From an uncultured archaeon (GTDB lineage: Archaea > Aenigmatarchaeota > Aenigmatarchaeia > CG10238-14 > SCSR01): a DNA stretch of 50,300 nucleotides. Location of the stretch: positions 1 to 50,300 of the forward strand of contig CAYRSM010000002.1 of NCBI GenBank assembly GCA_964427125.1, read 5' to 3'. Shown in pieces: positions 1,531 to 44,610 of the stretch. Numbering within the stretch: the stretch's first letter is position 1; every line of letters begins with the position of its first letter. Both the position numbers and the translations under genes were made by a program. The notes under the pieces are model-generated. The model saw only the letters and a list, made by a program, of their open reading frames with translations. It ran no database searches and was not told the origin of the DNA.

Positions 1531-2850
1531 TCATATCCCTAACTGGGACTTCGAGCCGTCCTGTTGCACTCCTAGCAGCCATTTGTACAGCGGCACGCAG
1601 GGCACGGCATGCCCGTCTGCCTCCAGGACGCCTTCGTAGTCCCACGTTATCACAAGCAGGTTTCCGCATTTCATCTGGCCAGACGCCTTGATCAGGGACG
1701 CCGTCTCCCTGTCCCCTATCTCCTCGCGGCTGGACGAATAGGTTACCTGTATCAGCTGCCTCACTCCCGCCCCCTCCTTGACCACGAAGTCCACCTCGTT
1801 CTGCACATGATCCTTCCAGTAGTATACCTCCGTCCCGCCAGACAGGTAGTTTTTCCTCCTCAGGAGCTCCGTCGCGACAAGGTTCTCCATCAGCCTGCCG
1901 CGGTTCTCGCTCGTCCGGAACCCCATCGCGCTTACGAACCCCGTGTCTATGCAGTAGATCTTCTTCGGTGCAATCGTCTGCTGCTTGAGCTTGGGCGAGT
2001 ACCTCTCCAGCATAAAGGACAGGTACGCCCCCTCCAGGGCGTCTGCCCAGTTTTTGACGGTGTGTACGTCCCTTATTTCAAATATGTGCCCCAGCTTCCT
2101 TAGCGTAAACTCCGAGGCCGCATTCGAGACGAGGTATTTCGCAAACTCCTTGAACGTTTTTTTCTTCCGTATGGCGAACCTTTTGAGCACGTCTTTTTCT
2201 ATGATGTCCGCGTACACCCTCGCGACAATCTCCCTGCCGAACACGTAGGCCTCTGGCAGCCCCCCGATGTCCAAGTACCTCTCCAGCTGCCTCTTCAGTT
2301 CGGCCGTCTTCGCCGTGGAATAAAAATCCTCCCTTACGACAACAATCCCATTGTAGGCGAGGAATTCCCTGAAGCTGAACGGCATCAGCGTGAAGTCGAT
2401 GTGTCTGCCCGTCAGGTGCGTGGCCAGCTCGCCTGCAAGAAGCTTGGAGTTGCTTCCCGTTATGACGACTCTCTTGGTTCGCCTGAGCCTGTTTGCAAAC
2501 AGCTCCCAGCCTTCGACGTTCTGCGGCTCGTCGAGTATGAGACAATCTATGTTCCCGTAGAGCTCGTAAAACGCCTGCAGTATTTTGTCCAGATCCCCAG
2601 CTCCAGCCCCGGTCAGTCTCTCATCGTCAAAGTTCACGTACCCGAACTTTTCCTTTCTGAATATCTGCCACGAGAACACGGACTTTCCGCACCTCCTGAC
2701 GCCGAGGATGGCCAGGACGTTCGGCTGCGCCACGAAACTCTCCAGTCTCGCCATGGCGACCTCCCTTTCTATGATTGTGGCTTTTCCGAACTTTTCTTCC
2801 ATCTCCTCACGTTGCGATACTATGACCCTCTTGATTTCTTCCACGTTCAT
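1531..2850 (-). CDS. AAA+ ATPase, AAA_14 + DUF4143 family
   Basis: Walker A is LGVRRCGKS and Walker B-like is CLILDEPQ. The C-terminal half has the DUF4143-type signature EVDFVVKEG. I prefer the internal ATG (MNVEEIKRV) at 2850 over the track start at 2898. Confidence 0.8.
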   Translation of the reverse strand: MNVEEIKRVIVSQREEMEEKFGKATIIEREVAMARLESFVAQPNVLAILGVRRCGKSVFSWQIFRKEKFGYVNFDDERLTGAGAGDLDKILQAFYELYGNIDCLILDEPQNVEGWELFANRLRRTKRVVITGSNSKLLAGELATHLTGRHIDFTLMPFSFREFLAYNGIVVVREDFYSTAKTAELKRQLERYLDIGGLPEAYVFGREIVARVYADIIEKDVLKRFAIRKKKTFKEFAKYLVSNAASEFTLRKLGHIFEIRDVHTVKNWADALEGAYLSFMLERYSPKLKQQTIAPKKIYCIDTGFVSAMGFRTSENRGRLMENLVATELLRRKNYLSGGTEVYYWKDHVQNEVDFVVKEGAGVRQLIQVTYSSSREEIGDRETASLIKASGQMKCGNLLVITWDYEGVLEADGHAVPCVPLYKWLLGVQQDGSKSQLGI

Positions 2851-2995
2851 AACAATACTATTCACATACTTTAATAAAAAGTTTGCGGTTAATATCATTT
2901 AAAACTTGCCATTTCGTAAAATAACTCTATAAATTTATATTTTATAAAAAATTAATAGAGTTAAATTTAAATATAACAAAAATAAATAGACATAT
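2851..2995. promoter_or_regulatory. AT-rich divergent promoter region between the two DUF4143 ATPase genes
   Basis: This is 145 bp of very AT-rich non-coding DNA (tttaataaaaag, ataaatttatattttataaaaaattaat, aaatttaaatataac) with several TATA-like stretches facing both ways. No transcript data are available. Confidence 0.4.
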
Positions 2996-4255
2996 ATGCC
3001 AGAGATGATTATAAAGAGGGAGCTCGAGGACAGGGTGATGCGCTTAGCCAAAAGAAGGGAGATAATATGCATAAGGGGCCCGCGACAGGCCGGGAAGACC
3101 ACCCTGATGAAGACCGTGCAAAGAGCCTTGGGCGGGGACAGCGCCTTCGTAAACCTTGACCTTATAGAGTACAGGAAAGCCCTCGAGGGGGCGCCTGTGG
3201 ATTTCGCCAAAAGGCTCGCCAAGGAGGGCAAAAGGCTTTTCCTGTTCCTGGACGAGGTGCAGAGGGTGAAGGACGCGGGCGAGAAGCTGAAGATAATATA
3301 CGACGAGTTCCCGGACATAAAGATGTTCGCCTCCGGCTCGTCGTCGCTTGAACTGAAAGCCAATGTCCTGCCGCCCCTGGTGGGAAGGATGTTCCTGTTC
3401 GAGCTGTTCACTTTCGACTTCGAGGAGTTCCTGGGCGCAAGGGACGAGGGGCTGCGCAGGCTGCATGCGGAGAAGCGCGCTTCCCTGCTGGATTTCCTCG
3501 CCGGCAAAGGAGAACTGTCGCCCCCCTCGTTCACCGGGGATTTCACAAGGCGCCTGAAGGAGCATATGGTCTTCGGCGGCTATCCGGAGGTCGTGAAGGC
3601 GTCCGACGAGGAGGAAAAAAAGACCGTCCTCAGGAACATATTCAACCTGTATCTTGAGAAGGACATAGCATCCCTGTTCGCCGGGGAGACCGCCAAGTTC
3701 GACAGCTTTTTGAAAGTGCTCGCGTTTTCGGTCTCGGGTGTGCTCTCCCTCTCGTCGGCGGCGTCCGACGCGGGCGTGAGCCATGTCAGGGCCGGGCAGT
3801 TCCTCGAGGCGCTGAAGCACACCTACATCGTCTTCGCGCTGCCGCCGTTCCACAGGAACCTGATAACGGAGATAAGGAAGGCCCCGAAGGTGTACTTCTG
3901 GGACGTCGGCCTGAGGAACTCGTCCATGGACAACTTTTCCCCGTTCGACGGCAGGACGGACAAAGGGCAGCTGCTGGAGAATTTCGTCGCAAAGGAGCTT
4001 GTCATGAATTTCCCGGAATATAAGATTCGCTACTGGAGGACGACGGGCAAGGCCGAGGTGGACTTCGTCCTGGAAAAGGATGGCGCGGCGGTGCCCGTTG
4101 AAGTAAAATTGTCCGGGGATTCCCTGGGCAAGAGCTTTTACAGCTTTTTGGACGCGTACAAGCCAGAGAAGGCGCTTGTCGTGACCCTGGACAGGTTCGA
4201 CGCAAAAAAAATCAACGATACCGATGTCCGCTGGGTGCCCGCATTCTATTTTTAA
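2996..4255 (+). CDS. AAA+ ATPase, AAA_14 + DUF4143 family (second, divergent copy)
   Basis: Walker A is GPRQAGKTT and Walker B is LFLFLDEVQ. The C-terminal signature is GKAEVDFVLEKDG. The architecture matches 1531..2850 but the sequence is clearly diverged. Confidence 0.8.
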   Translation: MPEMIIKRELEDRVMRLAKRREIICIRGPRQAGKTTLMKTVQRALGGDSAFVNLDLIEYRKALEGAPVDFAKRLAKEGKRLFLFLDEVQRVKDAGEKLKIIYDEFPDIKMFASGSSSLELKANVLPPLVGRMFLFELFTFDFEEFLGARDEGLRRLHAEKRASLLDFLAGKGELSPPSFTGDFTRRLKEHMVFGGYPEVVKASDEEEKKTVLRNIFNLYLEKDIASLFAGETAKFDSFLKVLAFSVSGVLSLSSAASDAGVSHVRAGQFLEALKHTYIVFALPPFHRNLITEIRKAPKVYFWDVGLRNSSMDNFSPFDGRTDKGQLLENFVAKELVMNFPEYKIRYWRTTGKAEVDFVLEKDGAAVPVEVKLSGDSLGKSFYSFLDAYKPEKALVVTLDRFDAKKINDTDVRWVPAFYF

Positions 4256-4355
4256 TCCATCCTGCTAATAGCACACGAGCGTGTCAATCGAAATACGCGC
4301 TTGCCGTCGGCGGAAAACCATCTTTTTAATACTTGGGACGCTCAATTTAAGGATT

Positions 4356-5915
4356 ATGAAGATGCTGAAGGACGCCAGGATGGTCCTGCTGATTGTGCTG
4401 ACTCTCTCATCGGTCGTAATCCTGGCATACCCCTATGTTACAGGCAAGTCCGGCGTGACAGTTACATCAATATCTCCGAGCGCAAGATGCACCGGCGTCT
4501 CCGCGGGGAGCGTCATAACCCAGGCCAGCGGCGGCGACATAAGAAACACAAACGATTTCCAGAGGATAATGGCGTCTGTGAAGGCGGGCGACTATGTCAC
4601 ACTGGTGGTGGACGGCGGCCCCGGGGGTTGCGCCGCGCCGTCTGACGGCAACGTTGGGCTGGCGGTCGATAACATGAGGTCTTCCTCGATAAAATTTTCA
4701 CCCGACATACAGGGCAGCACCAAGACGACTTATGCACCGACAGACAACCTCACGGCAACGGACACAACCACGGCAAGAAACATCATCCAGCAGAGGGTGA
4801 GAGCTCTGAACCTTCAGTACACGGCCGTCGATTCGCAGGACAGCAGCATAGCCATAACCGCCCCCACCAGCGTCAACCCCGACGGCCTCCTGGCGCCCTG
4901 CAACCTTGTGGGCAGGATCACGACCGCAATAAGCCTGGAGAACGGAACAGGGAGGGTGAAGGTCGGCAATGACACATACGGCATAGGCTTTTATGGCACC
5001 AATGTGAACGTGAGCGGGAGCGTGTATTCTGCCAGTGATACAATAACCATCGGGGGCGTACAGGTTCGGTTTTCCAACATAACGAACTCTTCGGCCGCGG
5101 AGACTGTGCAGTTCCTAAGGAACGGCGACGTCATATCCGCTTCAGGCTACGGCGGCACATCCAGGGACCAGACATCCGGGGAGTACTACTTCAACATACC
5201 GATTGTGGCTTCCGAGAGCAGCACAGACACCCTAAAGACAATGGCGAAGAGCCTCGGCACCACTTTCGCCGGCGGACAGCTCGCCCTGAACGGCAACATA
5301 GAGTACTACCTTGACGGTGTCCTCTTGTCCAGGCTTCCGATGCCATACACCCTGGCGACTCAGCCCATACAGTCGCTGTCGGTGATAGGCGTAGGCGCCG
5401 GCGCAAAGGCCGTGGACAGCCTGAGGACAAAGGCCCAGATGTGCCTCAGCTCACAGCCGCTTGGCATTGCGTTCGGGAAGACAGGCACCGTTACGGTCGA
5501 TCCCACCAACAGGAACGCGTTCTACTACACTCTGGCGGCCACGCTGGCACTTCCCATCCTGTTTTTCCTGGTCATGTATGTCAGGACGAAGTCTGTAAAA
5601 GAGTCGGCCGCCCTGATATCGCTGGCGCAGATGCCGATAACGCTTGGTGCAGCGGCTTTCACGCAGATGGCTTTCCCGGTGAGCTGGGTCGTGGACCTGC
5701 CCACGGCGATGGGGATATTTGTCTCTTTGTTTGCCGTCCTGTCCACATCAAGGTTTAGCGGTGCATTGCTGAAAAACGGGGTGTCCAGGCACGCCGACAT
5801 AATAGTGTTCCTTGTGGGCTTCGTTGTCCTGTTCACGCCGCTCAAGGGGCTCGGCCTCTCGCTGCTGGTGGGATGGTTCCTGAAGGTGACAGCCTTCGGC
5901 TCCATGATAAAGTGA
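4356..5915 (+). CDS. Divergent SecD-like membrane protein with an N-terminal PDZ-like segment
   Basis: An N-terminal TM (VLLIVLTLSSVVILAYP) is followed by a PDZ-like stretch (GSVITQASGGDIRNTNDFQRIMASVKAGDYVTLVV). A SecD-like P1 pattern follows (DIQGSTKTTYAP...ARNIIQQRVRALNLQYTAVDSQDSSIAITAP), then 4-5 C-terminal TMs (FFLVMYVRTK..., VDLPTAMGIFVSLFAV). I chose the ATG at 4356 (MKMLKD) because a TATA-like tttttaata lies about 30 nt upstream. Confidence 0.45.
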   Translation: MKMLKDARMVLLIVLTLSSVVILAYPYVTGKSGVTVTSISPSARCTGVSAGSVITQASGGDIRNTNDFQRIMASVKAGDYVTLVVDGGPGGCAAPSDGNVGLAVDNMRSSSIKFSPDIQGSTKTTYAPTDNLTATDTTTARNIIQQRVRALNLQYTAVDSQDSSIAITAPTSVNPDGLLAPCNLVGRITTAISLENGTGRVKVGNDTYGIGFYGTNVNVSGSVYSASDTITIGGVQVRFSNITNSSAAETVQFLRNGDVISASGYGGTSRDQTSGEYYFNIPIVASESSTDTLKTMAKSLGTTFAGGQLALNGNIEYYLDGVLLSRLPMPYTLATQPIQSLSVIGVGAGAKAVDSLRTKAQMCLSSQPLGIAFGKTGTVTVDPTNRNAFYYTLAATLALPILFFLVMYVRTKSVKESAALISLAQMPITLGAAAFTQMAFPVSWVVDLPTAMGIFVSLFAVLSTSRFSGALLKNGVSRHADIIVFLVGFVVLFTPLKGLGLSLLVGWFLKVTAFGSMIK

Positions 5916-5936: not shown

Positions 5937-8657
5937 TTATCCGCTTTGTTTCAGGTAACTACCGGCCTTCAGCGTCTTTGATTTTGTCTCTCCGGAAAAC
6001 AGCGACAGCTCTCCGCCGCACTTTGCGCATTTCCCGATCAGCGGTATGTAGCCGAAGGTCGTTCCGCACTTGTCACATATCACCCCGTCCACGCTTGTCA
6101 ACACCTCGGGCGCCTTCTCCTGCGGCTTTGCCAGCAGCTGGCTCAGCATCATCTGCTTTCCCACCCTGAACAGCTCGCCCTTGTCGATGCCCATTGCCTC
6201 AAACACCCTCTCCAGCGGGGGGAGGAGCTGGTTCTCTATGTAGTACTTCGGGTCGACTTTCAGGTTGTGCTGCCTGATGTACTCCGGGTCCTCGGCTCGC
6301 TCCGATATGCTCTGAAGCCCCTTCACGATGACAAAGCCTATCCTGTCTCCGACCGTGGGGGCGTCCCCGACCATCCTCTCCTTCATCTTCTTGGCGAGGT
6401 TTATGTGCGGGAGCATCCCCTTGTACTCTTCGGGCCTTTTGGTTATGCCCTTTGTGATGACCAACTTATCGAGCTCAATCTTGTTGTCCTGCAGCTTCTG
6501 CACTATGTCCTTCATATAGCTGACCGCCTTCTCGGGGTTCTGCTCTTTTAGTATTATGTTCAGCGTGTTTGTCAGAACCTCCGACACGAGGTTGCACCAG
6601 TCCCTCCTCACGGTCTCTATGCCCTTCATGACCGTCTTCTCCTTCCACTCGCCCCCGACCTTCTCGAAGCTCCAGCCGGCGTACCTCTTCTTCGTCAGGA
6701 TGAGCAGCGACCTGAAAATATTTTCCACCTTTATCCTCATGGTACCCTTATACTCGTCGTTGATAAGCTTGGCAAGTTCGTCCCCTTTTTTCATTGCCTC
6801 GTCCATGTCTTTTGTGTCGGTCTCCACCATAACTGAGTCCGTGTCGCCGTATATCACCTTGTGCCTCGTCTTGCCCTCCACCAGCTCCTTTGTCCTGTTG
6901 ATATAGTACCTGCCGCAGCTCGTTATCGCGCTGGCCACGTCCAGAACATACAGCCTCGCCATCATGAAGCCCGTGTAGCCGTAGAAGGCGTTCGACATCC
7001 TCTTGAGCCCCTCCTGCCTGGCGTCGAGTATGGCGAGTTTCTCCTCGTCCCTCTCTTTCTTCATCTCGGCTTTTATCTTGGCCCTTTCCTCTATCAGATT
7101 TTTTACTATCCTCGGGATTATTCCTTGGCGCACGACTGTAGGCGCAAATGTCGCGCCATACGGTGTCTTTATCAGGCCGTCAACCACACCGTCCTTTTCA
7201 GAAACCAAAGTGGTCGGGCAGATGTTGTAGCCTATGTATATCGAGGGGTACATGGACATAAAATCTAAATAAACTGTGGCGTTGGTGTGCAGACCGTTTA
7301 TTGGGTCAAGGACATATGCCCCCTTAAGTTCCCTTGTTTCCCTTTCCCTGTCCCTTCTCGCGACCTCGTCCTCGTCCGGCCTGTTTGGTATGACAAAGCC
7401 GTCCCTGTTGAACTCCCTCAGGAGAAGGTTCTCCACCTTGGTGGACTCGCCGCTGTCCAGTGCGTCCTGCAGGAGCACCCCGGAAACCATCGATATCCCG
7501 ACATATTTGTTTATCATCTGCTTCTCCAGCAAAATCCTGAGGGCAAGCACTGCGTCCTTCCTCGCATAGTCTGACAAAAGTTTCACGTCCTCCCTCTTCC
7601 CGTTCCAGAGCTTCGGTATGTCGTTCTTGTTTATTTCCACCTTGCCCTCCCCGAACAGGTGCTGCGACACGCTCTCCAGGCTGTACCTCTTCAGGCCGAC
7701 AAAGAAGCCTCTGCCGCTCATCTCCTTGATTATGACATAGGGGTCCACCACTATCCTGCCCGTCACGGAGTTCAGCGACTTTATGCCAATCTTCCTGCTG
7801 TTCATGGGCTTCTGCGAGCACCTCCCCAGAGTCCTGGCCACGCCCGTCCGCATCATGCGCTCGTTTATGTAGGGAAGGTCGAAGCTGTTTATGTTGTACC
7901 CGGTGATTATGTCCGGATCGTATCTTTCGAATATTTCCAATAATTTTGCGAGCATCTCCTTCTCGTCCGTGAACTCCATCGTCTCGCTGTTCGCGATCCC
8001 CATCCTCTTCGCCACGAGCACAAGCGTCTTCGTCGAGTTGAAGTTTGGGGAAAAGGCTAGGGATATCATTATTATCGGGTCCTTGCTCGCCTCGGGCAGG
8101 CCGCCGTCCTTGCTGGCTATCTCAATGTCGAGCGAGAGGTGTTTCATCGGGGCATTCCCGGCCATTTCAACTGGCTCCACGCTCTCCGCCTCTATCCTTT
8201 TTGTGGTCTTCGCTATGGTCGTCCTTATCGGCTCTCCCCCGACCTTGACCCACCTCATGCCGAAGATGCCAAAGTCCGCCATGAACCTGTACCTGAAGAG
8301 TATGTCGGCCTCGAAGATTTCCTCCACGCAGGGAAGTTTCTTCATATGGTCCCTGATCATAGGCGTCTTGGATGGGTCGGTCAATGTCACCTTCATCAAA
8401 TCCACCCTTTCCTTACTGAAGCCTATCGGCAGGAACCTCTGCACGGCATCTATCTTCTCGACCTCCTTAAAATTCTTCCCGAGTTCCTCCTCGGTGGCTT
8501 TCCAGTCCCTCGGAAGTATGTAAAAGTAGGGCTTAAAGTTCTTGTAGAAGACTGTCACAGACTCCCCCTTCTCCGTCTTGCCGAAAATCCTTATCGTCGG
8601 CCTGCCGTTCCCGTCGGCTATGTAGTCGCAGTCAAACACCTGAAGAATCGTTTCCAT
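5937..8657 (-). CDS. polB: Family B DNA polymerase with an extra C-terminal zinc ribbon
   Basis: Exonuclease motifs are Exo I LSLDIEIAS, Exo II YNINSFDLPY and Exo III YARKDAVLAL. Polymerase motifs are Pol A YLDFMSMYPSI, Pol B KRMSNAFYGYTG, Pol C IYGDTDSV and KKRY. The protein is 906 aa. Its last ~46 aa carry CDKC-x13-CAKC (6018..6077) after a linker. Confidence 0.95.
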   Translation of the reverse strand: METILQVFDCDYIADGNGRPTIRIFGKTEKGESVTVFYKNFKPYFYILPRDWKATEEELGKNFKEVEKIDAVQRFLPIGFSKERVDLMKVTLTDPSKTPMIRDHMKKLPCVEEIFEADILFRYRFMADFGIFGMRWVKVGGEPIRTTIAKTTKRIEAESVEPVEMAGNAPMKHLSLDIEIASKDGGLPEASKDPIIMISLAFSPNFNSTKTLVLVAKRMGIANSETMEFTDEKEMLAKLLEIFERYDPDIITGYNINSFDLPYINERMMRTGVARTLGRCSQKPMNSRKIGIKSLNSVTGRIVVDPYVIIKEMSGRGFFVGLKRYSLESVSQHLFGEGKVEINKNDIPKLWNGKREDVKLLSDYARKDAVLALRILLEKQMINKYVGISMVSGVLLQDALDSGESTKVENLLLREFNRDGFVIPNRPDEDEVARRDRERETRELKGAYVLDPINGLHTNATVYLDFMSMYPSIYIGYNICPTTLVSEKDGVVDGLIKTPYGATFAPTVVRQGIIPRIVKNLIEERAKIKAEMKKERDEEKLAILDARQEGLKRMSNAFYGYTGFMMARLYVLDVASAITSCGRYYINRTKELVEGKTRHKVIYGDTDSVMVETDTKDMDEAMKKGDELAKLINDEYKGTMRIKVENIFRSLLILTKKRYAGWSFEKVGGEWKEKTVMKGIETVRRDWCNLVSEVLTNTLNIILKEQNPEKAVSYMKDIVQKLQDNKIELDKLVITKGITKRPEEYKGMLPHINLAKKMKERMVGDAPTVGDRIGFVIVKGLQSISERAEDPEYIRQHNLKVDPKYYIENQLLPPLERVFEAMGIDKGELFRVGKQMMLSQLLAKPQEKAPEVLTSVDGVICDKCGTTFGYIPLIGKCAKCGGELSLFSGETKSKTLKAGSYLKQSG

Positions 8658-8665
8658 GCTTTACT

Positions 8666-9781
8666 TTACTCCAGGTTAACTTTTAAGCATTCGTATGTTT
8701 CCAAATCGACTGTCCAGGCAATTCCATCTTTGCCGAAATCATCCAGCGAGATGAGGACTGTGTTCTTGTAGTTGGCCTGTTGGCTTCCTCCAAGGTCTGT
8801 GACGAATATGTCCGGTGCGGGGTCTATGACAAGGGGAGAGAGCGAGACGCTTCCGAACCTCCGGTAGCCTATCATCCTCTTCCTCAGCAGTGTTGTCATT
8901 GATGCGATCGGTGCGTCGGTTGCCGGCAACGCCCCGCCGCCACAGAGGAGAACTTTGGCGTTCTCTATCATAAGCAACGCGGGTGAATAAATCGGTTGGG
9001 TCGTGTCCTCCGGTGTTGGCTCGGAAACAGGTTTCACCATGCGGCATGACCCTTGTTCAAGGTCGAACACATAGGCGCGCTCGTAGGCCTTGCCGGTCTT
9101 TTCCCTGATTGTTTTGATGACCCCACCCAACACCTCTTTCCTATCGCCGATGTGGGAGATAAACACCAGCACAGCCTTTCCCACGCTCTTATTCCTTTCC
9201 TTGAAGAGGGGCATGTCCGGCGCGACAATCTTCTCGGCCTTGATGGGAGAACCGTTTTCGCAGACAAAGCCCAGGACGTCACCCACACCAATTTGCGCCA
9301 GCTGGCCGTCCTCTATGCCCGCGCACGAGACAGACACCGCTCCCGTGTTGTCCTGCAGCATCATTAATTTGCTCGCCCTCTCCACACCCACAACCTCGGC
9401 TATCAGGGAGAACTTTGTGCTGTTCCTTGTGATCTTGTTTACGGATGTCGTGTTGACCAACTCCCACCTCTGCCTGAGCAAACCCCTCACAGCGTCGTAG
9501 GTCGCCGCCTTGTCCTCGAGGATGTCGTCCAGTGATATGCTTTCCGGCAGCGGCTCGGGCTTTTTCAGCACGATTATTGGGTTTTTCTCTGTGCCGCGTT
9601 GCGACTCAAATAACCGCACCTGTTCGACACCCACCACATACTTGCCTTCCTTTTGTATTGACTCTATGAGACCGCTCAAAAACTGCCCGTCAAACCCTTT
9701 CTCGGCTATGTATGCCAGGCTCTCCTTGTCGAGCTGCAACCCGTTCTTCAGAAAAAGCTCCAACGCCTCTTGTCCGTCCAT
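8666..9781 (-). CDS. DP1 (PolD small subunit)/eukaryotic B-subunit-like protein with an OB fold and a degenerate, catalytically dead phosphoesterase domain
   Basis: I start at the internal ATG at 9781 (MDGQEALELFLKNG...) because the 117-codon upstream part of the track ORF is Arg/Gly/His-rich junk overlapping the wHTH gene. The OB-like pattern is FSLIAEVVGVERASKLMMLQDNTGAVSVS...GVGDVLGFVCENGSPIKAEKIVAPDMP. The DP1 phosphoesterase (PDE) motifs are all degenerate: ISHIGD replaces SDxHxG, there is no GDxxD or GNHD, LLCGGG replaces xxHG, and PDIFVTDLGG replaces PDIFhxGHxH. The gap to polB is 8 nt. Confidence 0.6.
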   Translation of the reverse strand: MDGQEALELFLKNGLQLDKESLAYIAEKGFDGQFLSGLIESIQKEGKYVVGVEQVRLFESQRGTEKNPIIVLKKPEPLPESISLDDILEDKAATYDAVRGLLRQRWELVNTTSVNKITRNSTKFSLIAEVVGVERASKLMMLQDNTGAVSVSCAGIEDGQLAQIGVGDVLGFVCENGSPIKAEKIVAPDMPLFKERNKSVGKAVLVFISHIGDRKEVLGGVIKTIREKTGKAYERAYVFDLEQGSCRMVKPVSEPTPEDTTQPIYSPALLMIENAKVLLCGGGALPATDAPIASMTTLLRKRMIGYRRFGSVSLSPLVIDPAPDIFVTDLGGSQQANYKNTVLISLDDFGKDGIAWTVDLETYECLKVNLE

Positions 9782-9792
9782 AAATAGAGAAA

Positions 9793-10176
9793 CTACTTCT
9801 TTAGGATATAAACCGTGAGCCCCTTCGCGTCCTCCTTCTTGGAGTGCGGCAGGTCTATGGGCTGCACCTTGTCCGCGTTTACTAGCTCGTCCACATACTT
9901 CCTCACCGTGTTCCAGTTCACCCTCCGACCAAGCTTTCCCGATATCGTCTTGGCGATGTATGCTATGGTAAGGGGTGTGGCAGAGGAAGACAGGACATTG
10001 AGTATCTCGGACTGGATGAGGAACCTCTTGGACGGCCTGCCGCGTTTCGTGTGACTGCACCTTAGAATTATTATAATCTTTCCAAATATATTTGTTGCCT
10101 TGGGTACTGTGTTTTGAGTAGCCTGCCAACAACTTTCAGAACATTCGACAGAACTAACACTACATACTACATACAA
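9793..10176 (-). CDS. Small winged-helix DNA-binding protein, first gene of the polB operon
   Basis: The wHTH pattern is KRGRPSKRFLIQSEILNVLSSSATPLTIAYIAKTISGKLGRRVNWNTVRKYVDELVNADKV. Only one in-frame ATG/GTG/TTG exists (10176), so the N-terminal 40 aa are uncertain. The gap to the next gene is 11 nt. Confidence 0.55.
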   Translation of the reverse strand: MYVVCSVSSVECSESCWQATQNTVPKATNIFGKIIIILRCSHTKRGRPSKRFLIQSEILNVLSSSATPLTIAYIAKTISGKLGRRVNWNTVRKYVDELVNADKVQPIDLPHSKKEDAKGLTVYILKK

Positions 10177-10512
10177 CTATAACACCGTTATACATAACTA
10201 CACTAACAACGTAACGTATTGTAAAGGTTGTTGTCGTGTTACTCTAGTTACTCGGACAAGACAGTGACAGTAGACAGTTAGATTCCGAAACACAATATTT
10301 TATTTACAAACACACACCGATAACCTGCGAAAAGACGGGGTAAATGTAAGAACTGTGGCAAATTCTGTAGGAATAATCATAATAAACATTCGAACCTGCG
10401 CAGTTAACTTTCGACGTGTGTTAGAAAACTTTCGAGTGTGTGTAAAAACCGTTTGACTGGTTGTAGTTATTTTCCAACACATGATAATTTAAAAACGCCA
10501 GTCAAACCCCCT
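10177..10512. promoter_or_regulatory. Repeat-rich AT-rich non-coding region upstream of the polB operon (operator or candidate origin; function unknown)
   Basis: No credible ORF is present. Direct repeats AACTTTCGA(C)GTGTGT lie at 10406-10421 and 10427-10443. Three GACAGT copies lie at 10260-10278. A perfect 10-bp inverted repeat gtttgactgg/ccagtcaaac lies at 10451-10460/10498-10507. ACACACAC at 10310-10317 is inverted relative to the GTGTGT elements. Confidence 0.35.
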
Positions 10513-10893
10513 TCAACCAATCTTCCTTTCCAGCAACTTCCCAGCCAGGTTGTGCTCGCGCGGCACCCACACAAGCTTGCAGTTCTTTTTCACGAGCAGC
10601 CTCTTGCATTCGGCGTTCACATCCTTCAGGTGCGCGGCCTTGACCTTCCATCCCATGGTCAGCTGCCCCGCCAGTAGCCGGCTGTCTGTGTTGACGGTAC
10701 AGTCCCCAACCTCTTCGTTGGTCAGGGCCTCGAGCAACGCCTTGTACTCCGCCACATTGTTGGTCATCGGACCTGGGTGGAGCCTGACAGATTCTTTCAA
10801 CGGCCTCTCCTTTAACTCATAGTCTATGACCACAGCCGTCTTGCCTTTCTGTCCGTGCAGCAGGGCGCCGGCGCCGTCTATGTAGACCTTCAA
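10513..10893 (-). CDS. rnhA: Ribonuclease HI (archaeal short type 1 RNase H)
   Basis: Catalytic pattern: VYIDGAG (Asp), NNVAEYKALLEAL (Glu), VNTDSRLLAGQL (Asp). The C-terminus is VWVPREHNLAGKL. Length is 126 aa. Confidence 0.8.
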   Translation of the reverse strand: MKVYIDGAGALLHGQKGKTAVVIDYELKERPLKESVRLHPGPMTNNVAEYKALLEALTNEEVGDCTVNTDSRLLAGQLTMGWKVKAAHLKDVNAECKRLLVKKNCKLVWVPREHNLAGKLLERKIG

Positions 10894-10941: not shown

Positions 10942-11349
10942 CTAGATGAACTTTGTCACTCCGTTTATCAGGAAGAACTTTGTCACGACGGCCTTGATGA
11001 AGACCTCCCTCTCAGGGACGGGCAGGTAGTTTGTCGGGTTGGAGCAGTTCACCTTCACGAGCAGGCCGATCTCCGTGAGGACCTTCAGCCTCTTCCTCAG
11101 CGCCTCGACGCCTATCTTCATCTTGTGCAGGTTCTTCATCTCCCTGAACAGTATCGGGAAGCAGTAGGGCCTTGTGCTTGCGAGCGCGTCCTTTCCGCCG
11201 AGGTAGAATTTCTTCAGGATGACGACGTCGAAGAAGTCGAGCCTCTCCGCGAGCTCGTTTATCTCCTTCAGGTTCGGCAGCACGACGTTCTCGTTGCTCT
11301 GCGCAACATCGACGCCGCCGACAGCCACAGGATTTTCTATCTCCAGCAT
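10942..11349 (-). CDS. Hypothetical protein, probable winged-helix regulator
   Basis: Clean 135-aa ORF. The C-terminal half (MKIGVEALRKRLKVLTEIGLLVKV) looks like a wHTH recognition helix plus wing. I recognise no specific family. Confidence 0.5.
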   Translation of the reverse strand: MLEIENPVAVGGVDVAQSNENVVLPNLKEINELAERLDFFDVVILKKFYLGGKDALASTRPYCFPILFREMKNLHKMKIGVEALRKRLKVLTEIGLLVKVNCSNPTNYLPVPEREVFIKAVVTKFFLINGVTKFI

Positions 11350-11418: not shown

Positions 11419-12096
11419 TCATATCAGGCTGATTAATTTTACATCAGCGTTTCCCTTCTCTATATCCACGATGCCGCAGTAGCCCTCGGGGAAGCGCCCG
11501 GAGTTGATTGTCTTCGTGTTTTTTATGTAGTCCACGCCCTTCGACTCGTGTATGTGCGAGCAGATTGCGACGCTGGGCTGCCTGTTCTCGATGAATTTCC
11601 TCACGGCAGCGGAGCCTACGTGCACCCCGGCCGAGATTATGTCCAGCCTGGTGTTCTGCGGCGGCGCGTGGGTCACCTGGACCTTGACATCGGCATTCAA
11701 GACGTCGTTGTAAGCCTTCTCAAGGCCCGCCTCTATCTCAGGGTCCTCCGGTTCGTACGGCAGGCCGAACGGCGTCTTCGCCCCGCCAAAGCCGTAAAAG
11801 CCCACACCGCCGATTATCCTTCCCTTTCCGTGTATGCTCACACCCTCCTCGTCCAGAATGCTTATCAGCTCCTTGTCCCAGCTGCCGGGAACCGCCAGGA
11901 GAGGCTTTCCAAAGTTCTTCAGTTCCTCGATTATCACCCTCCCGACACCTGCCCTGTCAAAACCCTTCGGGAACAGCGAGTCTGTAAAGTCGCCCGTGCA
12001 CACTATCGCGTCGAACTTCAGCTCGCCGAGCTTGTCGTAGAAGTTGAGTATGCTCTCCACGTCGTTGTGTATGCAGCTTATTACAAGCGCCCTCAT
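11419..12096 (-). CDS. Calcineurin-like metallophosphoesterase
   Basis: Motifs seen: SCIHND, CTGDFTD, VPGSWD, VTHAPP, CSHIHE. Confidence 0.8.
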   Translation of the reverse strand: MRALVISCIHNDVESILNFYDKLGELKFDAIVCTGDFTDSLFPKGFDRAGVGRVIIEELKNFGKPLLAVPGSWDKELISILDEEGVSIHGKGRIIGGVGFYGFGGAKTPFGLPYEPEDPEIEAGLEKAYNDVLNADVKVQVTHAPPQNTRLDIISAGVHVGSAAVRKFIENRQPSVAICSHIHESKGVDYIKNTKTINSGRFPEGYCGIVDIEKGNADVKLISLI

Positions 12097-12139: not shown

Positions 12140-12475
12140 ATGGCGATGATGAACAAGCGGAAGGGCTATGCCGTCGAGAGGAAGATAAGGATCGTCTTCG
12201 AGAACGCCGGCTGGACTGTCATCAGGTCCGGCGGCAGCCTTGGCGAATCCGACTTGGTGTGTTTTAAGGACGGCAAATGCATGTTCCTGCAGATCAAGTC
12301 GACAAAGAAGGAGAAGTTCTACTACTACGGCTACAAATCTGAGACGATGGCGGGCTTCCCCTTCTACCTTCTGGTCGATTTCGGTTATGGAAAAATCAGA
12401 ATTACAAAGCCTGTCGATAGAGTTGAGTTGGACACAGGTGAGAGCCTCGCACAGTTCCTGGAAAAATCTATATAA
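12140..12475 (+). CDS. hjc: Holliday junction resolvase Hjc-like nuclease
   Basis: KGYAVERKIRIVFENAGWTVIRSGGSLGESDLVCFKDGKCMFLQIKSTKK matches the Hjc KGxxxER...R.xGS...D...E/Q.K nuclease core. Length is 111 aa. Confidence 0.7.
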   Translation: MAMMNKRKGYAVERKIRIVFENAGWTVIRSGGSLGESDLVCFKDGKCMFLQIKSTKKEKFYYYGYKSETMAGFPFYLLVDFGYGKIRITKPVDRVELDTGESLAQFLEKSI

Positions 12476-12513: not shown

Positions 12514-13062
12514 ATGGCAATGTTTGTAAAAGACGTCATGTCCTCTCCCGTGGTCAGTATAGACCAGGATAAGAGGGTAAAGGACGCAGGCTTGTTGATG
12601 AAGAAGACCAGGCGCGGTTCTTTGCTTGTCTTGAGCAAGGGCAAGCCGGTTGGCATAGTCACAGAGGCCGACCTTGTCAGGAGGGTTCTCGCGACGGGCG
12701 TAGACCCCATCAAGGCAAAGGTGAAGCAGGTCATGAGCAGGCCCATAGTCACTGTAAAGTCGGGTGACGAGCTCCTTGGCGCGGTCAGGGTGATGAAGAG
12801 GATAAACGCGCACAGGCTCCCTGTCATGGACGAGGCCGGGAAGCTGGTCGGGCTGCTGTCGCTTAGCGACGTGGCCAAGACCTCGCCCGAGATGGCCGAC
12901 CTCTTGGAGTACAAGGAGAAGATGAGGGAGGAGGAGCCTATTTTGAAAAGCGAGACCACGGCCGGCATATGCGACAGCTGCGAGAACTATTCCGAGAGGC
13001 TCAGGCACATAGAGGACCAGTGGCTCTGCGAGGACTGCGTCGGCGACGTGGAAGAGGAGTAA
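12514..13062 (+). CDS. CBS-domain pair protein with a C-terminal CxxC...CxxC zinc ribbon
   Basis: There are two CBS repeats (VKDVMSSPVVSI...GIVTEADLVRRV and VKQVMSRPIVTV...GLLSLSDVAK). The tail is CDSCENYSERLRHIEDQWLCEDC. Confidence 0.8.
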   Translation: MAMFVKDVMSSPVVSIDQDKRVKDAGLLMKKTRRGSLLVLSKGKPVGIVTEADLVRRVLATGVDPIKAKVKQVMSRPIVTVKSGDELLGAVRVMKRINAHRLPVMDEAGKLVGLLSLSDVAKTSPEMADLLEYKEKMREEEPILKSETTAGICDSCENYSERLRHIEDQWLCEDCVGDVEEE

Positions 13063-22098: not shown

Positions 22099-25000
22099 CT
22101 ACTGCCACTTCTTCCTCAGCTCGTCCCACTTCCCGGTGCGCTGCATGCCGTTCTTGGCCTTCTTTCTGCCCCCGCTCATCAGGTATATCGCGAGCCCAGC
22201 CACACCCGCGGCTATCAGCACGAAGCCTATGATGGAAACAAGGGGCAGCTGCTGCGTGGGCGTCGTAGGTGTGACGCCTCGTCCAGTGACGTTGACCTGC
22301 GAGGTCACGTTAGCGGTGGTGTTGACGGGAGTAGCCGTGTTGGCCTGCCCGGCTATCGCGTAGGTGGAAAGGCCCGGCGACACGGCGCTGTAGTAGACAT
22401 AGTCGGTGCCCTCCGAGGTCTTGTTCGTAGGGAGAGCGTTCCACGCGCCGCCGGAGTACCTGTACAGTGTGACCGTCGAGTCGTTTATGCTGCTGCCGAG
22501 CCAGTTCTTCTCGACGTAAAAGTTTATCGTGACATTGTTTACGTCAGTGTCGGATATTATCGTGGGCACAATCTCGAAATAGTTGAATATGGGCCCGTTG
22601 ACGTTCTGCGTTATGTCTGACGGCTTTGAGGTGAGGGTGTCGATCACGATCTGAACGTTGTTCACGTTGTCGTTCGTGTTTACAACGAGGCTGCTGATGT
22701 AAAGACCTGCAACGTACCCTATAGGGACTTGGTTATCACCCTCTGTCATGTTGATTGCAACCGTGGCGGTCTTGTCGCCCGTGGTGACTGTGGGCGTGCT
22801 CGGGCCGGAAGAGACGCCCGGAGGCTGGCTTGCGGGACTAGTTACATTAACCATGATGTTGAATGCGGATATGTTGTTGAACCATGTGCCGACGGTGCCG
22901 TTAATCCGTATTGTATCCGTGCCGGCACTCGGTCCCGCGGTAACGTTCCAAGCTATGTAGCAGCCGCTGGAGTTGTATGCGCTGAGGTTAAATGTTACAA
23001 CCACGCTTGAAGTAGACGCTGCCCCGGTTGACCAACCGTCACAATTGGATAAAGCTTGTGAAATCGTTGTATAAGACGCATTTTTGCTGATTGTTACCTG
23101 TGCAGCAGATGCATTCATGGGGCCGAAATTTTGAACTGTCACATTGGCAGTATAGTATGTGCCCGGACCCGTGCCATTTGATATTGTATTTGTTGCGGTG
23201 CTTATTGGTGTGAAGTACAGCCCGGTGTTGTTGACGACCACAGGGAAAGTGCTGCCCGAACCTGTGAAGTTGAAGTTGTCGTTCCTGTTGAAAATCGAAG
23301 TGATGTACATCACGTACTGACCTCCTGGCGTGTTGGGAGGCAGGGTCGCGTTGAGGTTGTAGTATCCGCCGGCGTACATCGGCGAGGTGTCGTTTGTGAT
23401 GCCGGAAAGGCTGCCCTGCAACGGTATCCTTCCTGCCGAATTGGACAGTATGTTTGAGACGTTCCCCTCCTGCAGCCACACAGATGTGAAGTTGGACGCG
23501 CTGGTTATGCCCGTTTCGTTGGTGTCGTTCATGTACGAAGTGTAAAGTGCCACGGTCATGTTACCCCCCGTGGTGCCGTTCAGTACGCTCGTGCCGCCGG
23601 CCGAAGTTATGTTGAAAATGTTTATGTTCATGGAGTTTGTAAGGTTGAGCCTCACGGTGAGGTTGTAGGAAGCGTATGGGTGCGAGCTCAGGTTTGCCGA
23701 GCTGTTTGTGGCGTTGATGAATATCCAACCGTCATAGGTGCCGACAGGGAACGAGCTGTTGTACGAGACGTTTATCTGGATTAGCGCAAAGCCGTGGCTG
23801 GTGACGTTCGATGTCGTGTTGTAGGTCATGTTCGCGAAGAAACCGGAGCATAAGCTCGACGTGCATGTCAGGTTTGTGGAGTTCAGTGCCATGTTTATTG
23901 ACGAGTTGAAAGTGCCTATGTTAGTCAGGTTGATGGTGATGTTCCTGGTCAGGGTCGCTCCGTAATCCTCGTCTATCCTGAAGACATTCGAGCTGCCGGA
24001 TGCGTTGAATGGGTTTAGTAAATTTGGGGTGTTGCTCGCGTTCAGTACAAGCAGCGTCGGTGTGGTGACGTTGAAGACTATGGGTACGTTCACCCTTCCC
24101 CCGTTCTCATCTGTGAAAGTCAGATTTCCCTGATAGCCGCCGTCTATTGCCTGTGTAGGTACAGTGAGATTCACCTGGACTGACGTGTTCGACGAGAGGT
24201 TGTTGAGCGACGGCGTTGTGGAAACGCTGGTGTTCATCCAGTTGGTGGTGTTTTCAAAAGTGAAGACTGTGACGTTGAAGGGGTCGTTGCCCGAATTGTT
24301 GACCACAGACGCGTTCCAGTACCCTGGATTAGTGATTGTCGCTGTGTCGTTGTATAGTTCCAGAATACCCGCGTTAGAGACGTTGGCGAGGGTGTATGCG
24401 TTGCCTGACGTCATAACCAAGGTGCCCGCCGGGTCGTACACGTTGAGGGTATAGTTGCTCGCTCCAGTCCACGTAAGGTTGACCCTGACGCCCGACTCGG
24501 TGCCGGGGTCCCCGACCAAGAAGGCAAAGCTCCTATCACCAGTTCCGTTGAAAGACTGGACGCGGTACAGACTGCTCGACAGCGAGATGTTCCCTATCGC
24601 CAGCCCGCCCTGATTGGTAAGGTTCAGGTTGGTCGTGCCGATCGAGCCGCTTGCGTTCAGGTTCCCATAAGTCAGGCTGGAATTCGTGACGTTGAGCGTG
24701 GAAAATACAACCACTCCTGAGTAATTGATTGGCGAAGTCGAATTGCCGTATACCCTTATCTCCCACACGGCCGAAACGGACGGCGGGTAATTGTAGCCCA
24801 GCGACTGCGTAGCGCCGCCGCTCACGGACTCTGCCTTCATGCTTCCCGAACCGTCAAAGAGGAAAAGATGTGCAATGTTTGTGGCGCTCAGATTGACATA
24901 GACGGATGTCGCGTTGGGTACGGCCGAAGTGTTGAAATAGTAGGATTGATAAGTCGTTGCGTTTGCCGGCAGGGAACCGTTGAAGTTGGTTGCGCCCGTC

Positions 25001-25851
25001 GTCAAGTTTGTATTGCTTGTGTTCAGTGGCACGTCCACAAAGACGGCGACGCTCAGGTTTTCACCGTTGTTTGTCTGGTCCCTTATGGTAAGCTGCTGTA
25101 TCCAGTACCTGCCTGGGCTGCACGAGGTCGCGTTGGCTATGACAGTTATGTTAGCCGTGTTGTAGCCGGAGCTTCCATTTATAGGCCCTGTTACATTGCC
25201 GTATCCAGTGAGGTTTTGTGTCGCTAGGTAACCGCAGGTCAACTGAACGGAGTAGTTGCCGATGAACGCGGCTGTGGCGTTTATCATCTCCAGTGTTATG
25301 TTCGTGTTTCTGGTCCCGTTTGCTATAATGGTGATGTTCTGCTGATAGGCATTTGTCCAATTAAGATACGTCGTTGTCTGCACGGTTCCGAATTCACCGC
25401 CGTTACTGTCTGTGGGGGGAGCGACGCTGACAGTGTAGTTTGTCGTATTCTGAACACCCGATGTGTCCATCGTCGTTATAGTAATGTTTGTGACATTGAA
25501 AATTAACGAAACGTTGGCTTTGAAGAAGAACCACGCCGATGCGGAGCCGTTTATTATTCCCCCGGGCGTGGAATTCGTCCAGTTGGCTGTGGACGCAGAA
25601 CTGCTGAATGTCGTACTGCTGGCATTCGTGAAATTCGAACCAACAACGAAGACCATGCCGGCGGGCAGCGTGAAATTGGCGCGCGTTATGTTTGCCGAAA
25701 CGTTGTTGTTTGTTATCGTGACACTGAATGTCTGGTTGATTGCGGAAGTGGTTGCGTTCTGAGATGACGGGGTTGTTGAAAAACTGGCCGCGAAAACAAC
25801 GACGGAAAGAGCCAAAATGGCCACAGACAGAAGCAGATACACACTCCTCAT
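22099..25851 (-). CDS. Giant surface (S-layer-like) glycoprotein with a signal peptide, a PGF-pre-PGF-like domain and a C-terminal TM anchor
   Basis: The signal peptide is MRSVYLLLSVAILALSVVVFAASF. The 1250-aa protein is dominated by N/T/S, with about 100 N-x-S/T sequons by hand count. A C-terminal-proximal segment (FNYFEIVP...INFYVEKNWL...VTLYRYSGGAWNALPT...YVYYSAVSPGLSTYAIAG) fits the archaeal PGF-pre-PGF pattern. The TM is LPLVSIIGFVLIAAGVAGLAIYL, followed by GGRKKAK. Confidence 0.8.
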   Translation of the reverse strand: MRSVYLLLSVAILALSVVVFAASFSTTPSSQNATTSAINQTFSVTITNNNVSANITRANFTLPAGMVFVVGSNFTNASSTTFSSSASTANWTNSTPGGIINGSASAWFFFKANVSLIFNVTNITITTMDTSGVQNTTNYTVSVAPPTDSNGGEFGTVQTTTYLNWTNAYQQNITIIANGTRNTNITLEMINATAAFIGNYSVQLTCGYLATQNLTGYGNVTGPINGSSGYNTANITVIANATSCSPGRYWIQQLTIRDQTNNGENLSVAVFVDVPLNTSNTNLTTGATNFNGSLPANATTYQSYYFNTSAVPNATSVYVNLSATNIAHLFLFDGSGSMKAESVSGGATQSLGYNYPPSVSAVWEIRVYGNSTSPINYSGVVVFSTLNVTNSSLTYGNLNASGSIGTTNLNLTNQGGLAIGNISLSSSLYRVQSFNGTGDRSFAFLVGDPGTESGVRVNLTWTGASNYTLNVYDPAGTLVMTSGNAYTLANVSNAGILELYNDTATITNPGYWNASVVNNSGNDPFNVTVFTFENTTNWMNTSVSTTPSLNNLSSNTSVQVNLTVPTQAIDGGYQGNLTFTDENGGRVNVPIVFNVTTPTLLVLNASNTPNLLNPFNASGSSNVFRIDEDYGATLTRNITINLTNIGTFNSSINMALNSTNLTCTSSLCSGFFANMTYNTTSNVTSHGFALIQINVSYNSSFPVGTYDGWIFINATNSSANLSSHPYASYNLTVRLNLTNSMNINIFNITSAGGTSVLNGTTGGNMTVALYTSYMNDTNETGITSASNFTSVWLQEGNVSNILSNSAGRIPLQGSLSGITNDTSPMYAGGYYNLNATLPPNTPGGQYVMYITSIFNRNDNFNFTGSGSTFPVVVNNTGLYFTPISTATNTISNGTGPGTYYTANVTVQNFGPMNASAAQVTISKNASYTTISQALSNCDGWSTGAASTSSVVVTFNLSAYNSSGCYIAWNVTAGPSAGTDTIRINGTVGTWFNNISAFNIMVNVTSPASQPPGVSSGPSTPTVTTGDKTATVAINMTEGDNQVPIGYVAGLYISSLVVNTNDNVNNVQIVIDTLTSKPSDITQNVNGPIFNYFEIVPTIISDTDVNNVTINFYVEKNWLGSSINDSTVTLYRYSGGAWNALPTNKTSEGTDYVYYSAVSPGLSTYAIAGQANTATPVNTTANVTSQVNVTGRGVTPTTPTQQLPLVSIIGFVLIAAGVAGLAIYLMSGGRKKAKNGMQRTGKWDELRKKWQ

Positions 25852-44438: not shown

Positions 44439-44610
44439 TTTCACACACATTCCCTGTCCCAAAACTGCTGCACGGTCTCTTCGTTCTTTCCCAGCTGTTC
44501 GAACTGCGACATAAAGTCTATTTTGGCTGTAAAAGAAGTTAAAAATTAAGGTCCGTCGGCTTTCCGCTTCAGGTATATTTTTATCCTTGATTCGACAAAA
44601 TCTAGTTTAT

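Follow-up and report, generated by a model that had tools for sequence, protein, structure and literature searches.

Archaeal DNA polymerase D (PolD), as represented by the structures from Pyrococcus abyssi (6T8H) and Thermococcus kodakarensis (6KNB), pairs a small subunit, DP1, laid out as N-domain, OB fold and phosphoesterase fold, with a catalytic subunit, DP2, that ends in a zinc module (Zn-III; C-KCN-x-FRR-PL-GKC-x2-CGG). In the eukaryotic pairs POLD1-POLD2, POLA1-POLA2 and POLE-POLE2, a C-terminal cysteine module connects a B-family polymerase subunit with an inactivated B-subunit of DP1 type. Kazlauskas et al. (2020; PMC7544198) placed the archaeal PolB group B6 in a Delta-like clade and defined B6-aenigma1, found DP2 to be absent in most Aenigmarchaeota, described an inactive DP1 group (‘Aenigma_GB_GCA_002789635-like’) that co-occurs with these PolBs, and proposed that the new PolB replaced DP2 there; for groups B4 and B6 a viral provenance was suggested from their restricted distribution. 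A 2025 study (PMC12680538) reports Aenigmatarchaeota that are without DP2 and keep DP1, a ‘degenerate DP2CTD’ (CTD, C-terminal domain) on their PolB, and binding of DP1 to PolB-DP2CTD by AlphaFold3 and yeast two-hybrid in both lineages, including Aenigmatarchaeota. Here we analyse a stretch of 50,300 nt from an uncultured archaeon (contig CAYRSM010000002.1, assembly GCA_964427125.1; ‘the window’ hereafter), which carries an operon for a 906-aa PolB, a 371-aa DP1-like protein and an 85-aa winged-helix protein. The architecture of a PolB with a dead DP1 is already catalogued (2020) and its interaction tested on orthologues (2025), and the central idea is in that sense published and experimentally tested. 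What the window adds is a diverged example in which all nuclease ligands have decayed, in a tight operon conserved across the lineage, together with the winged-helix partner gene and a candidate operator. Neither PMC7544198 nor PMC12680538 mentions the operon, the synteny, the winged-helix gene or the candidate operator of this locus in its full text. Within the literature in reach, which yielded no other paper on the subject, neither the 85-aa gene with its conservation nor the organization of the operon seems to have been described.

The three genes are co-directional on the minus strand, with 8 nt between the PolB and DP1-like genes (8658-8665) and 11 nt between the DP1-like and small genes (9782-9792), just as the original prediction for this DNA had described them. 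A longer, TTG-initiated version of the DP1-like open reading frame (ORF), 8666..10132, overlaps the small gene in a different frame and is taken to be an artefact because homologues begin at the MDGQ/MEKK position of the 371-aa version. In the PolB, Pfam recognizes DNA_pol_B (E 3e-115) and DNA_pol_B_exo1 (E 4e-38), corresponding to an exonuclease domain at approximately residues 113-330 and a polymerase domain at approximately residues 396-821. Motifs are intact in both: all seven listed in the original prediction (DIE, NINSFD, YARKD, DFMSMYPS, KRMSNAFYGY, YGDTDS and KKRY) are read in the translation, ExoI-III and PolA-C included. When the core is compared with solved structures, the catalytic subunit of human Pol delta scores best (E 7e-119) and the Thermococcales PolBs come after it. 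In a large protein database, PolBs of 890-915 aa with 50-65% identity to the window PolB over 99% of its length (65% for the nearest) number in the hundreds, and where these have names, they are mostly Candidatus Aenigmatarchaeota. Judged by identity and best PDB match, not by a tree, the window PolB groups with Aenigmatarchaeota PolBs and has a Pol delta-like affinity. Some homologues (P0003, P0014, P0086 and P0088) reach 1250-1335 aa and contain intein or LAGLIDADG domains, none of which is found in the window PolB.

The C-terminal tail of this PolB links it to PolD. Its ribbon reads C861-DK-C864, a 12-residue spacer, and C877-AK-C880; the CDKC/CAKC pair had been noticed before, with a spacer given as x13 that counts to x12. 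Among the 120 matches listed, 119 have complete C-termini and all 119 carry the same tail with x12 spacing, a few of them with C-x-C as the second pair (consensus dGfiC-x2-C-nktfrr-PLiGKC-x2-CgGEilFysGe-KSk). A profile built from 34 homologue tails, cut after the thumb and run against the PDB, found DP2 Zn-III (6knb_B residues 1128-1156, E 3.5e-8; 6hms_B and 6t8h_B, E 2.5e-7), with the next-best zinc finger four orders of magnitude weaker. The NCBIfam DP2 models match the ribbon in the single PolB sequence as well, at model positions 1013-1042 (E 7e-4). By these matches the tail derives from Zn-III, which in DP2, the large PolD subunit, is the third zinc module. Because that descent is visible, the ‘independent reinvention’ of the eukaryotic arrangement, offered as an alternative in the original prediction, is unlikely. 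The ribbon is presumed to be the docking module for the B-subunit. It is a single four-cysteine (C4) motif followed by 26 residues, and the eukaryotic CysA and CysB pair with its helical bundle is not present in this PolB. Between the thumb and the linker to the ribbon lies QMMLSQLL, which could, speculatively, be read as a PCNA-interacting peptide (PIP) box-like motif; the pattern G[KR]Q-x-x-L is kept in 105 of the 119 homologues. The comparison with a PCNA-interacting peptide is drawn from the C-termini of Thermococcales PolBs.

The 371-aa protein is not easily recognized from its own sequence. It has no Pfam match, a single-sequence phmmer search of the PDB gave nothing meaningful, and a word-indexed protein search returned only the protein itself. 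The NCBIfam DP1 model matches its residues 1-212 (E 1.4e-12), and an exhaustive HMMER search of 1.8 billion representatives yielded 161 relatives at E < 1e-3, the closest of them 46% identical. Almost all of these are 330-410 aa long; the weak end also takes in a small number of genuine DP1s with lengths of 460-640 aa. A family profile of 88 members, searched against the PDB, matches DP1 structures strongly (6knb_A at E 3e-33; 5ihe, 6hmf, 6t8h and 8ppt at approximately 1e-28) in two separate regions, one being the OB fold and the other the C-terminal half of the phosphoesterase domain. It also matches yeast Pol31 and human POLD2 weakly in the C-terminal stretch (E 1e-3 to 2e-2). The AlphaFold2 (AF2) model is confident (predicted local distance difference test score, pLDDT, 92.3; predicted template-modelling score, pTM, 0.86) and consists of a four-helix N-domain (residues 1-63), an OB barrel (approximately 105-190) and a mixed alpha/beta, shortened phosphoesterase-like domain (approximately 200-371). 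Comparison of the model with DP1 and with POLA2/POLD2/POLE2 by Foldseek had been set beforehand as a check, and the first 40 places in the PDB are taken only by DP1 (E down to 3e-16) and the eukaryotic B-subunits POLD2, Pol31, POLE2/Dpb2 and POLA2. Alignment to real DP1s confirms the DP1 layout that the original prediction had read from the sequence, a helical N-domain, an OB fold and a shortened calcineurin-like domain. Both the profiles and the model place the protein in the DP1/polymerase B-subunit superfamily, in which an OB fold precedes a phosphoesterase fold.

Alignment with four canonical DP1s shows what has become of the phosphoesterase active site. Motif I (SDIHVG) is changed to SHIGD, motif II (GDLVD) is without a counterpart, motif III (GNHD) is deleted, the His of motif IV is replaced by Gly (VLLCGGG), and motif V (GHTH) reads D-LGG, which bears out the earlier claim that every catalytic motif is replaced. 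As judged from its sequence, the protein is not an active DP1, that is, not a proofreading nuclease, because it keeps 0/9 of the ligand positions and motif III is deleted. Across 132 family members the ligands are retained to different extents, with none kept in 68, one or two in 46, and six or seven in approximately 10, a distribution by which the family appears to span stages of decay. Members that stand midway between an active and a fully dead DP1 may be among them. Some other members still have an SD-x-H motif I. The near-invariant positions of the family (R302, P323, D324, N337-Y338-K339, L360 and R363) cluster in the C-terminal half of the phosphoesterase domain, which we infer to be the docking surface. 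This domain, normally contacted by DP2, is approximately 100 residues shorter than in canonical DP1s.

With the catalogued B6-aenigma1 PolB and its inactive DP1 it shares an active PolB of approximately 900 aa, the single DP2 Zn-III-like C4 motif, a dead DP1, an Aenigmatarchaeota-type lineage and the Pol delta-like affinity; it differs in belonging to a diverged subclade, with 0/9 ligands and a phosphoesterase domain that is shortened further. It has the small-subunit layout of PolD and the same zinc module at the end of the catalytic subunit, whereas its polymerase core is B-family and not the double-psi beta-barrel DP2, proofreading is assigned to the PolB exonuclease and not to DP1, the DP1 is dead and approximately 100-250 residues shorter, and only the zinc ribbon is left of the DP2 CTD. 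The likeness to the eukaryotic pairs lies in a B-family subunit with an inactivated B-subunit whose model superposes on POLD2, Pol31, POLE2 and POLA2, and in a PolB core that is nearest to Pol delta among solved structures. Unlike those pairs, the window system has one C4 motif and not CysA with CysB and the helical bundle, it has no iron-sulfur motif, and its B-subunit is far smaller; homologues of the additional subunits of eukaryotic holoenzymes are not evident in it. Concrete archaeal intermediates that connect PolD with the eukaryotic Pol alpha/delta/epsilon holoenzymes are few, and a PolB with a dead DP1 is among them; well-resolved instances help to reconstruct the transition from one to the other.

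Conservation of the operon was followed in loci around five PolB homologues and in seven found by a genome scan with a 6-sequence DP1-like alignment (in this set L003 and L004 are two assemblies of a single locus, and L002 and L010 are one contig). The order of 85-aa winged helix, DP1-like gene and PolB is found in 10/10 distinct related loci with enough upstream sequence, and in the window and five loci the genes are spaced by 11-17 nt and 8-9 nt respectively. Identity to the window proteins across loci is 47-75% for the winged-helix protein, which makes it about as conserved as PolB (52-65%), and 26-42% for the DP1-like protein. Farther upstream, the genes for a CBS protein, the Hjc resolvase, a 225-aa metallophosphoesterase and a 135-aa protein (orf135) are syntenic across deeply diverged Aenigmatarchaeota loci. 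The operon setting is chromosomal housekeeping and not a mobile element: the window contains genes for isoleucyl-tRNA synthetase (IleRS), a class-I aminoacyl-tRNA synthetase, Pus10, glutamate dehydrogenase and tRNA-Leu, and the scanned ORFs, which comprise the neighbours of the module and the larger ORFs, include neither an integrase nor another mobile-element gene. No DP2 is encoded in the window, in which the two ORFs of more than 1000 aa encode IleRS and an apparent surface protein. On an uncultured-archaeon contig (L022), a DP1-like fragment (569-1075) and a PolB (3438-5075) lie on opposite strands and not in tandem; this PolB is 47% identical to that of the window.

We regard it as highly probable that the operon encodes a two-subunit replicase, in which the DP2-derived ribbon of PolB docks on the dead phosphoesterase-like domain and the enzyme is connected to the replisome through the N-domain and OB fold of the DP1 descendant. 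The three genes would make up a chromosomal operon for the replicative polymerase of an Aenigmatarchaeota-type archaeon; this lineage is reported to have lost DP2. The 906-aa PolB would carry out both synthesis and 3′-5′ proofreading, and its C4 ribbon, inherited from Zn-III, would dock on the degenerate domain of the 371-aa protein, giving a eukaryote-like PolB holoenzyme of two subunits. The DP1 descendant, having no metal ligands, would serve as a scaffold and not as a nuclease. Dpb2 tethers the polymerase to the replisome in eukaryotes, and the N-terminal helical domain and OB fold of the window protein most likely do so here. A comparable contact is that of DP1N with Gins51 in Thermococcus, reported in PMC9023282. 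The 85-aa protein would be co-transcribed first and bind DNA, most likely as an autoregulator through an upstream palindrome, or otherwise be a third accessory subunit. The original prediction had proposed that PolB may recruit a dead DP1-like B-subunit through its ribbon, as a counterpart of the eukaryotic arrangement. The DP1 profile, the Foldseek matches and the Zn-III-like tail obtained here support this, as does the binding of the orthologues (PMC12680538); homologies, active-site loss and operon conservation come from the present analysis, and the PolB-DP1 interaction and the absence of DP2 from the literature.

Several points weigh against this assignment, and two other readings of the pair have to be considered beside it. 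The evidence for docking between PolB and DP1 comes from orthologues and not from the window proteins, and the window DP1-like protein, at 26-46% identity to its relatives, is likely much more diverged than the orthologues tested, with a phosphoesterase domain shortened further. The N-terminal domain resembles DP1N weakly (4 bits for the first domain of the profile), although the NCBIfam alignment spans it, and the fold matches of the 85-aa protein are generic and point to no specific role. A DP2 or canonical DP1 may be encoded elsewhere in the genome, outside the 50.3 kb seen. That last point, with the viral provenance suggested for B4 and B6 (PMC7544198) and the inteins of some homologues (P0003, P0086, P0088), would suit an accessory or mobile-element polymerase, in which a virus- or plasmid-derived PolB and DP1-like module stand beside a canonical PolD encoded elsewhere. 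We consider this very unlikely, given flanking synteny (CBS, Hjc, metallophosphoesterase, orf135 and the operon) that runs across deep divergence and indicates vertical chromosomal inheritance, a window rich in housekeeping genes and free of mobile-element genes among the ORFs scanned, and a lineage without DP2 according to PMC12680538. It is highly improbable that the DP1-like protein acts independently of PolB, as an OB-fold protein that binds single-stranded DNA or associates with GINS, with the ribbon used for DNA or PCNA contact. The OB fold region does resemble RPA14/RPA32-type OB folds, and the domain that DP2 would contact has been shortened, but conservation within the family is strongest in the C-terminal phosphoesterase half, which still matches Pol31 and POLD2, the 8-9-nt gap to the PolB gene stays tight across loci, and Aenigmatarchaeota orthologues interact in the published yeast two-hybrid experiment (PMC12680538).

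The first gene of the operon had been annotated by NCBI as a 127-aa ORF from TTG 10176, the sole canonical in-frame start and the one adopted in the original prediction. This start is probably too far upstream. The 127-aa ORF aligns with homologues over its final 85 residues only, the homologues begin with MKRGRPSKR and an ATG where the window has ACG (10050..10048, minus strand), and the 339 relatives found by a profile search are nearly all exactly 85 aa, those with names being Aenigmatarchaeota. The 85-aa version is also favoured because the conserved promoter-like block falls within the 127-aa ORF. The ACG would be either a non-canonical start or an error in the assembly consensus. The protein has no Pfam domain, and a sequence-profile search of the PDB matched no family. 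The AF2 model (pLDDT 89.9) has three helices and two strands (H8-22, H29-40, H46-58, E62-68, E76-83), and its Foldseek matches are the DNA-binding domains of PadR, Fur, LmrR and MarR (E 2e-4 to 7e-3; template-modelling (TM) score approximately 0.7), in line with the winged helix-turn-helix (wHTH) call made at first. No polymerase subunit or Rpa2 winged helix is among the top 50. By its model the protein is a winged helix of a generic kind, and its N-terminus (KRGRPSKR) is basic and resembles an AT-hook. It shares the three-helix and beta-hairpin wing fold of the PadR/MarR/Fur domains, whereas it is without the dimerisation or ligand domains of those regulators and without a Pfam or PDB match at the sequence level. 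Among the Aenigmatarchaeota-type loci and protein matches examined, it is confined to this operon.

Three conserved elements emerge when the 350 nt upstream of the small gene are aligned between the window and four other loci of its subclade: an AT-rich block that resembles a promoter, a Shine-Dalgarno-like AAGGTG 7 nt before the ACG, and one palindrome. The palindrome core, ATAAC-N3-GTTAT, has a single copy in the window (10179-10191), which taken alone equals the chance expectation. It is also present once each in L002 (4553-4565), L003 (4472-4484), L008 (1255-1267) and L009 (1176-1188), starting 128-157 nt upstream of the winged-helix start codon in those four loci, and it was not found in the more distant Aenigmatarchaeota clade. 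We take it seriously because its position is conserved although the DP1-like proteins of these loci share no more than 35-42% identity, and we regard it as a candidate operator for the wHTH protein. The upstream region had been called repeat-rich, but apart from the one conserved palindrome, the short two-copy matches found by a repeat search over 10100-10560 do not exceed chance, and no repeats like the origin recognition box (ORB) are among them.

What the small protein does bears on how the replicase is regulated or assembled, and here we lean, with moderate confidence, towards autoregulation of the operon through the palindrome. That it is instead a dedicated, physical third subunit of the Aenigmatarchaeota PolB/B-subunit replicase, comparable to the third subunit of eukaryotic Pol delta, whose winged-helix N-domain binds the B-subunit, is possible but doubtful; if true, it would push the origin of a multi-subunit, eukaryote-style PolB holoenzyme further back into archaea. 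Its conservation at the level of PolB and well above that of the DP1-like protein, a length fixed at 85 aa in hundreds of sequences and a gene that is always 11-17 nt upstream of the B-subunit gene would all be in keeping with such a subunit, whereas the generic DNA-binding wHTH matches, the AT-hook-like N-terminus and the subclade palindrome fit a DNA-binding regulator. Similarity to polymerase third subunits or to the Rpa2 winged helix was sought and not found: the PDB profile search gives no match, and the top 50 places of Foldseek are generic regulators. The original prediction had also likened the locus to the oriC-cdc6-DP1-DP2 layout, with the winged helix in the place of Cdc6, and the oriC-cdc6-polD layout of Pyrococcus does offer a precedent for an origin-proximal module. 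In such a module the unusually long AT-rich intergenic region before the replication operon (approximately 10051-10512) would be the origin and the winged-helix protein a minimal initiator replacing Cdc6. We find this extremely improbable and reject the analogy. No Orc1/Cdc6 is encoded among the scanned ORFs, the small protein is a bare, generic wHTH without an AAA+ domain, ORB-like elements are missing from the region searched, the conserved elements resemble a promoter and one operator palindrome, and the cumulative GC skew has no turning point at the locus.

Table 1. Coordinates of the replicase operon, its upstream elements and other features of the 50.3-kb window
Feature	Position	Strand	Basis or remark
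PolB catalytic subunit, 906 aa, B6-aenigma1 type	5937..8657	-	Pfam, PDB match, homologue identity
PolB C-terminal zinc ribbon, C861-x2-C864-x12-C877-x2-C880	6018..6077	-	NCBIfam DP2 and tail profile
Weak PIP-box-like motif QMMLSQLL, after thumb, before linker to zinc ribbon	6132..6155	-	Homologue pattern
Inactivated DP1/B-subunit homologue, 371 aa	8666..9781	-	NCBIfam, family profile, AF2, Foldseek, ligand count
85-aa winged-helix protein, first operon gene	9793..10050	-	339 homologues, AF2, Foldseek
Promoter-like AT-rich block (CAAATATATTTGGAAAGATTATAATAATT) and Shine-Dalgarno-like AAGGTG	10058..10094	-	Upstream alignment
Palindrome TATAAC-N3-GTTATA, candidate operator for wHTH protein	10178..10192	.	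Conserved position in subclade
126-aa RNase H-like gene, between orf135 and operon upstream region	10513-10893	-	Window
135-aa protein (orf135), weak winged-helix match	10942-11349	-	Detected in some distant loci only
225-aa calcineurin-like metallophosphoesterase	11419-12096	-	Syntenic; 54-71% identical across distant loci
Hjc resolvase	12140-12475	+	Syntenic in several distant Aenigmatarchaeota loci
CBS protein	12514-13062	+	Syntenic in several distant Aenigmatarchaeota loci
AAA_14 + DUF4143 ATPase gene, first of divergent pair	1531-2898	-	Near one window end
AAA_14 + DUF4143 ATPase gene, second of divergent pair	2996-4255	+	Near one window end
1250-aa ORF	22099-25851	-	Signal-like N-terminus, extreme N-x-S/T richness, C-terminal transmembrane anchor
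733-aa ORF without Pfam match	44587-46788	+	Window

Among the remaining features (Table 1), the RNase H-like gene was not detected at its position in any related locus. The metallophosphoesterase gene (11419-12096) lies next to a replicase with a dead DP1 nuclease. The 1250-aa ORF was considered as a DP2 and rejected, since it has no Pfam match and encodes a protein rich in N-x-S/T sequons; by its sequence it looks like an S-layer or surface glycoprotein. Between the end of the second gene of the divergent ATPase pair and the PolB 3′ end, a distance of approximately 1.7 kb, lies a 544-aa ORF.

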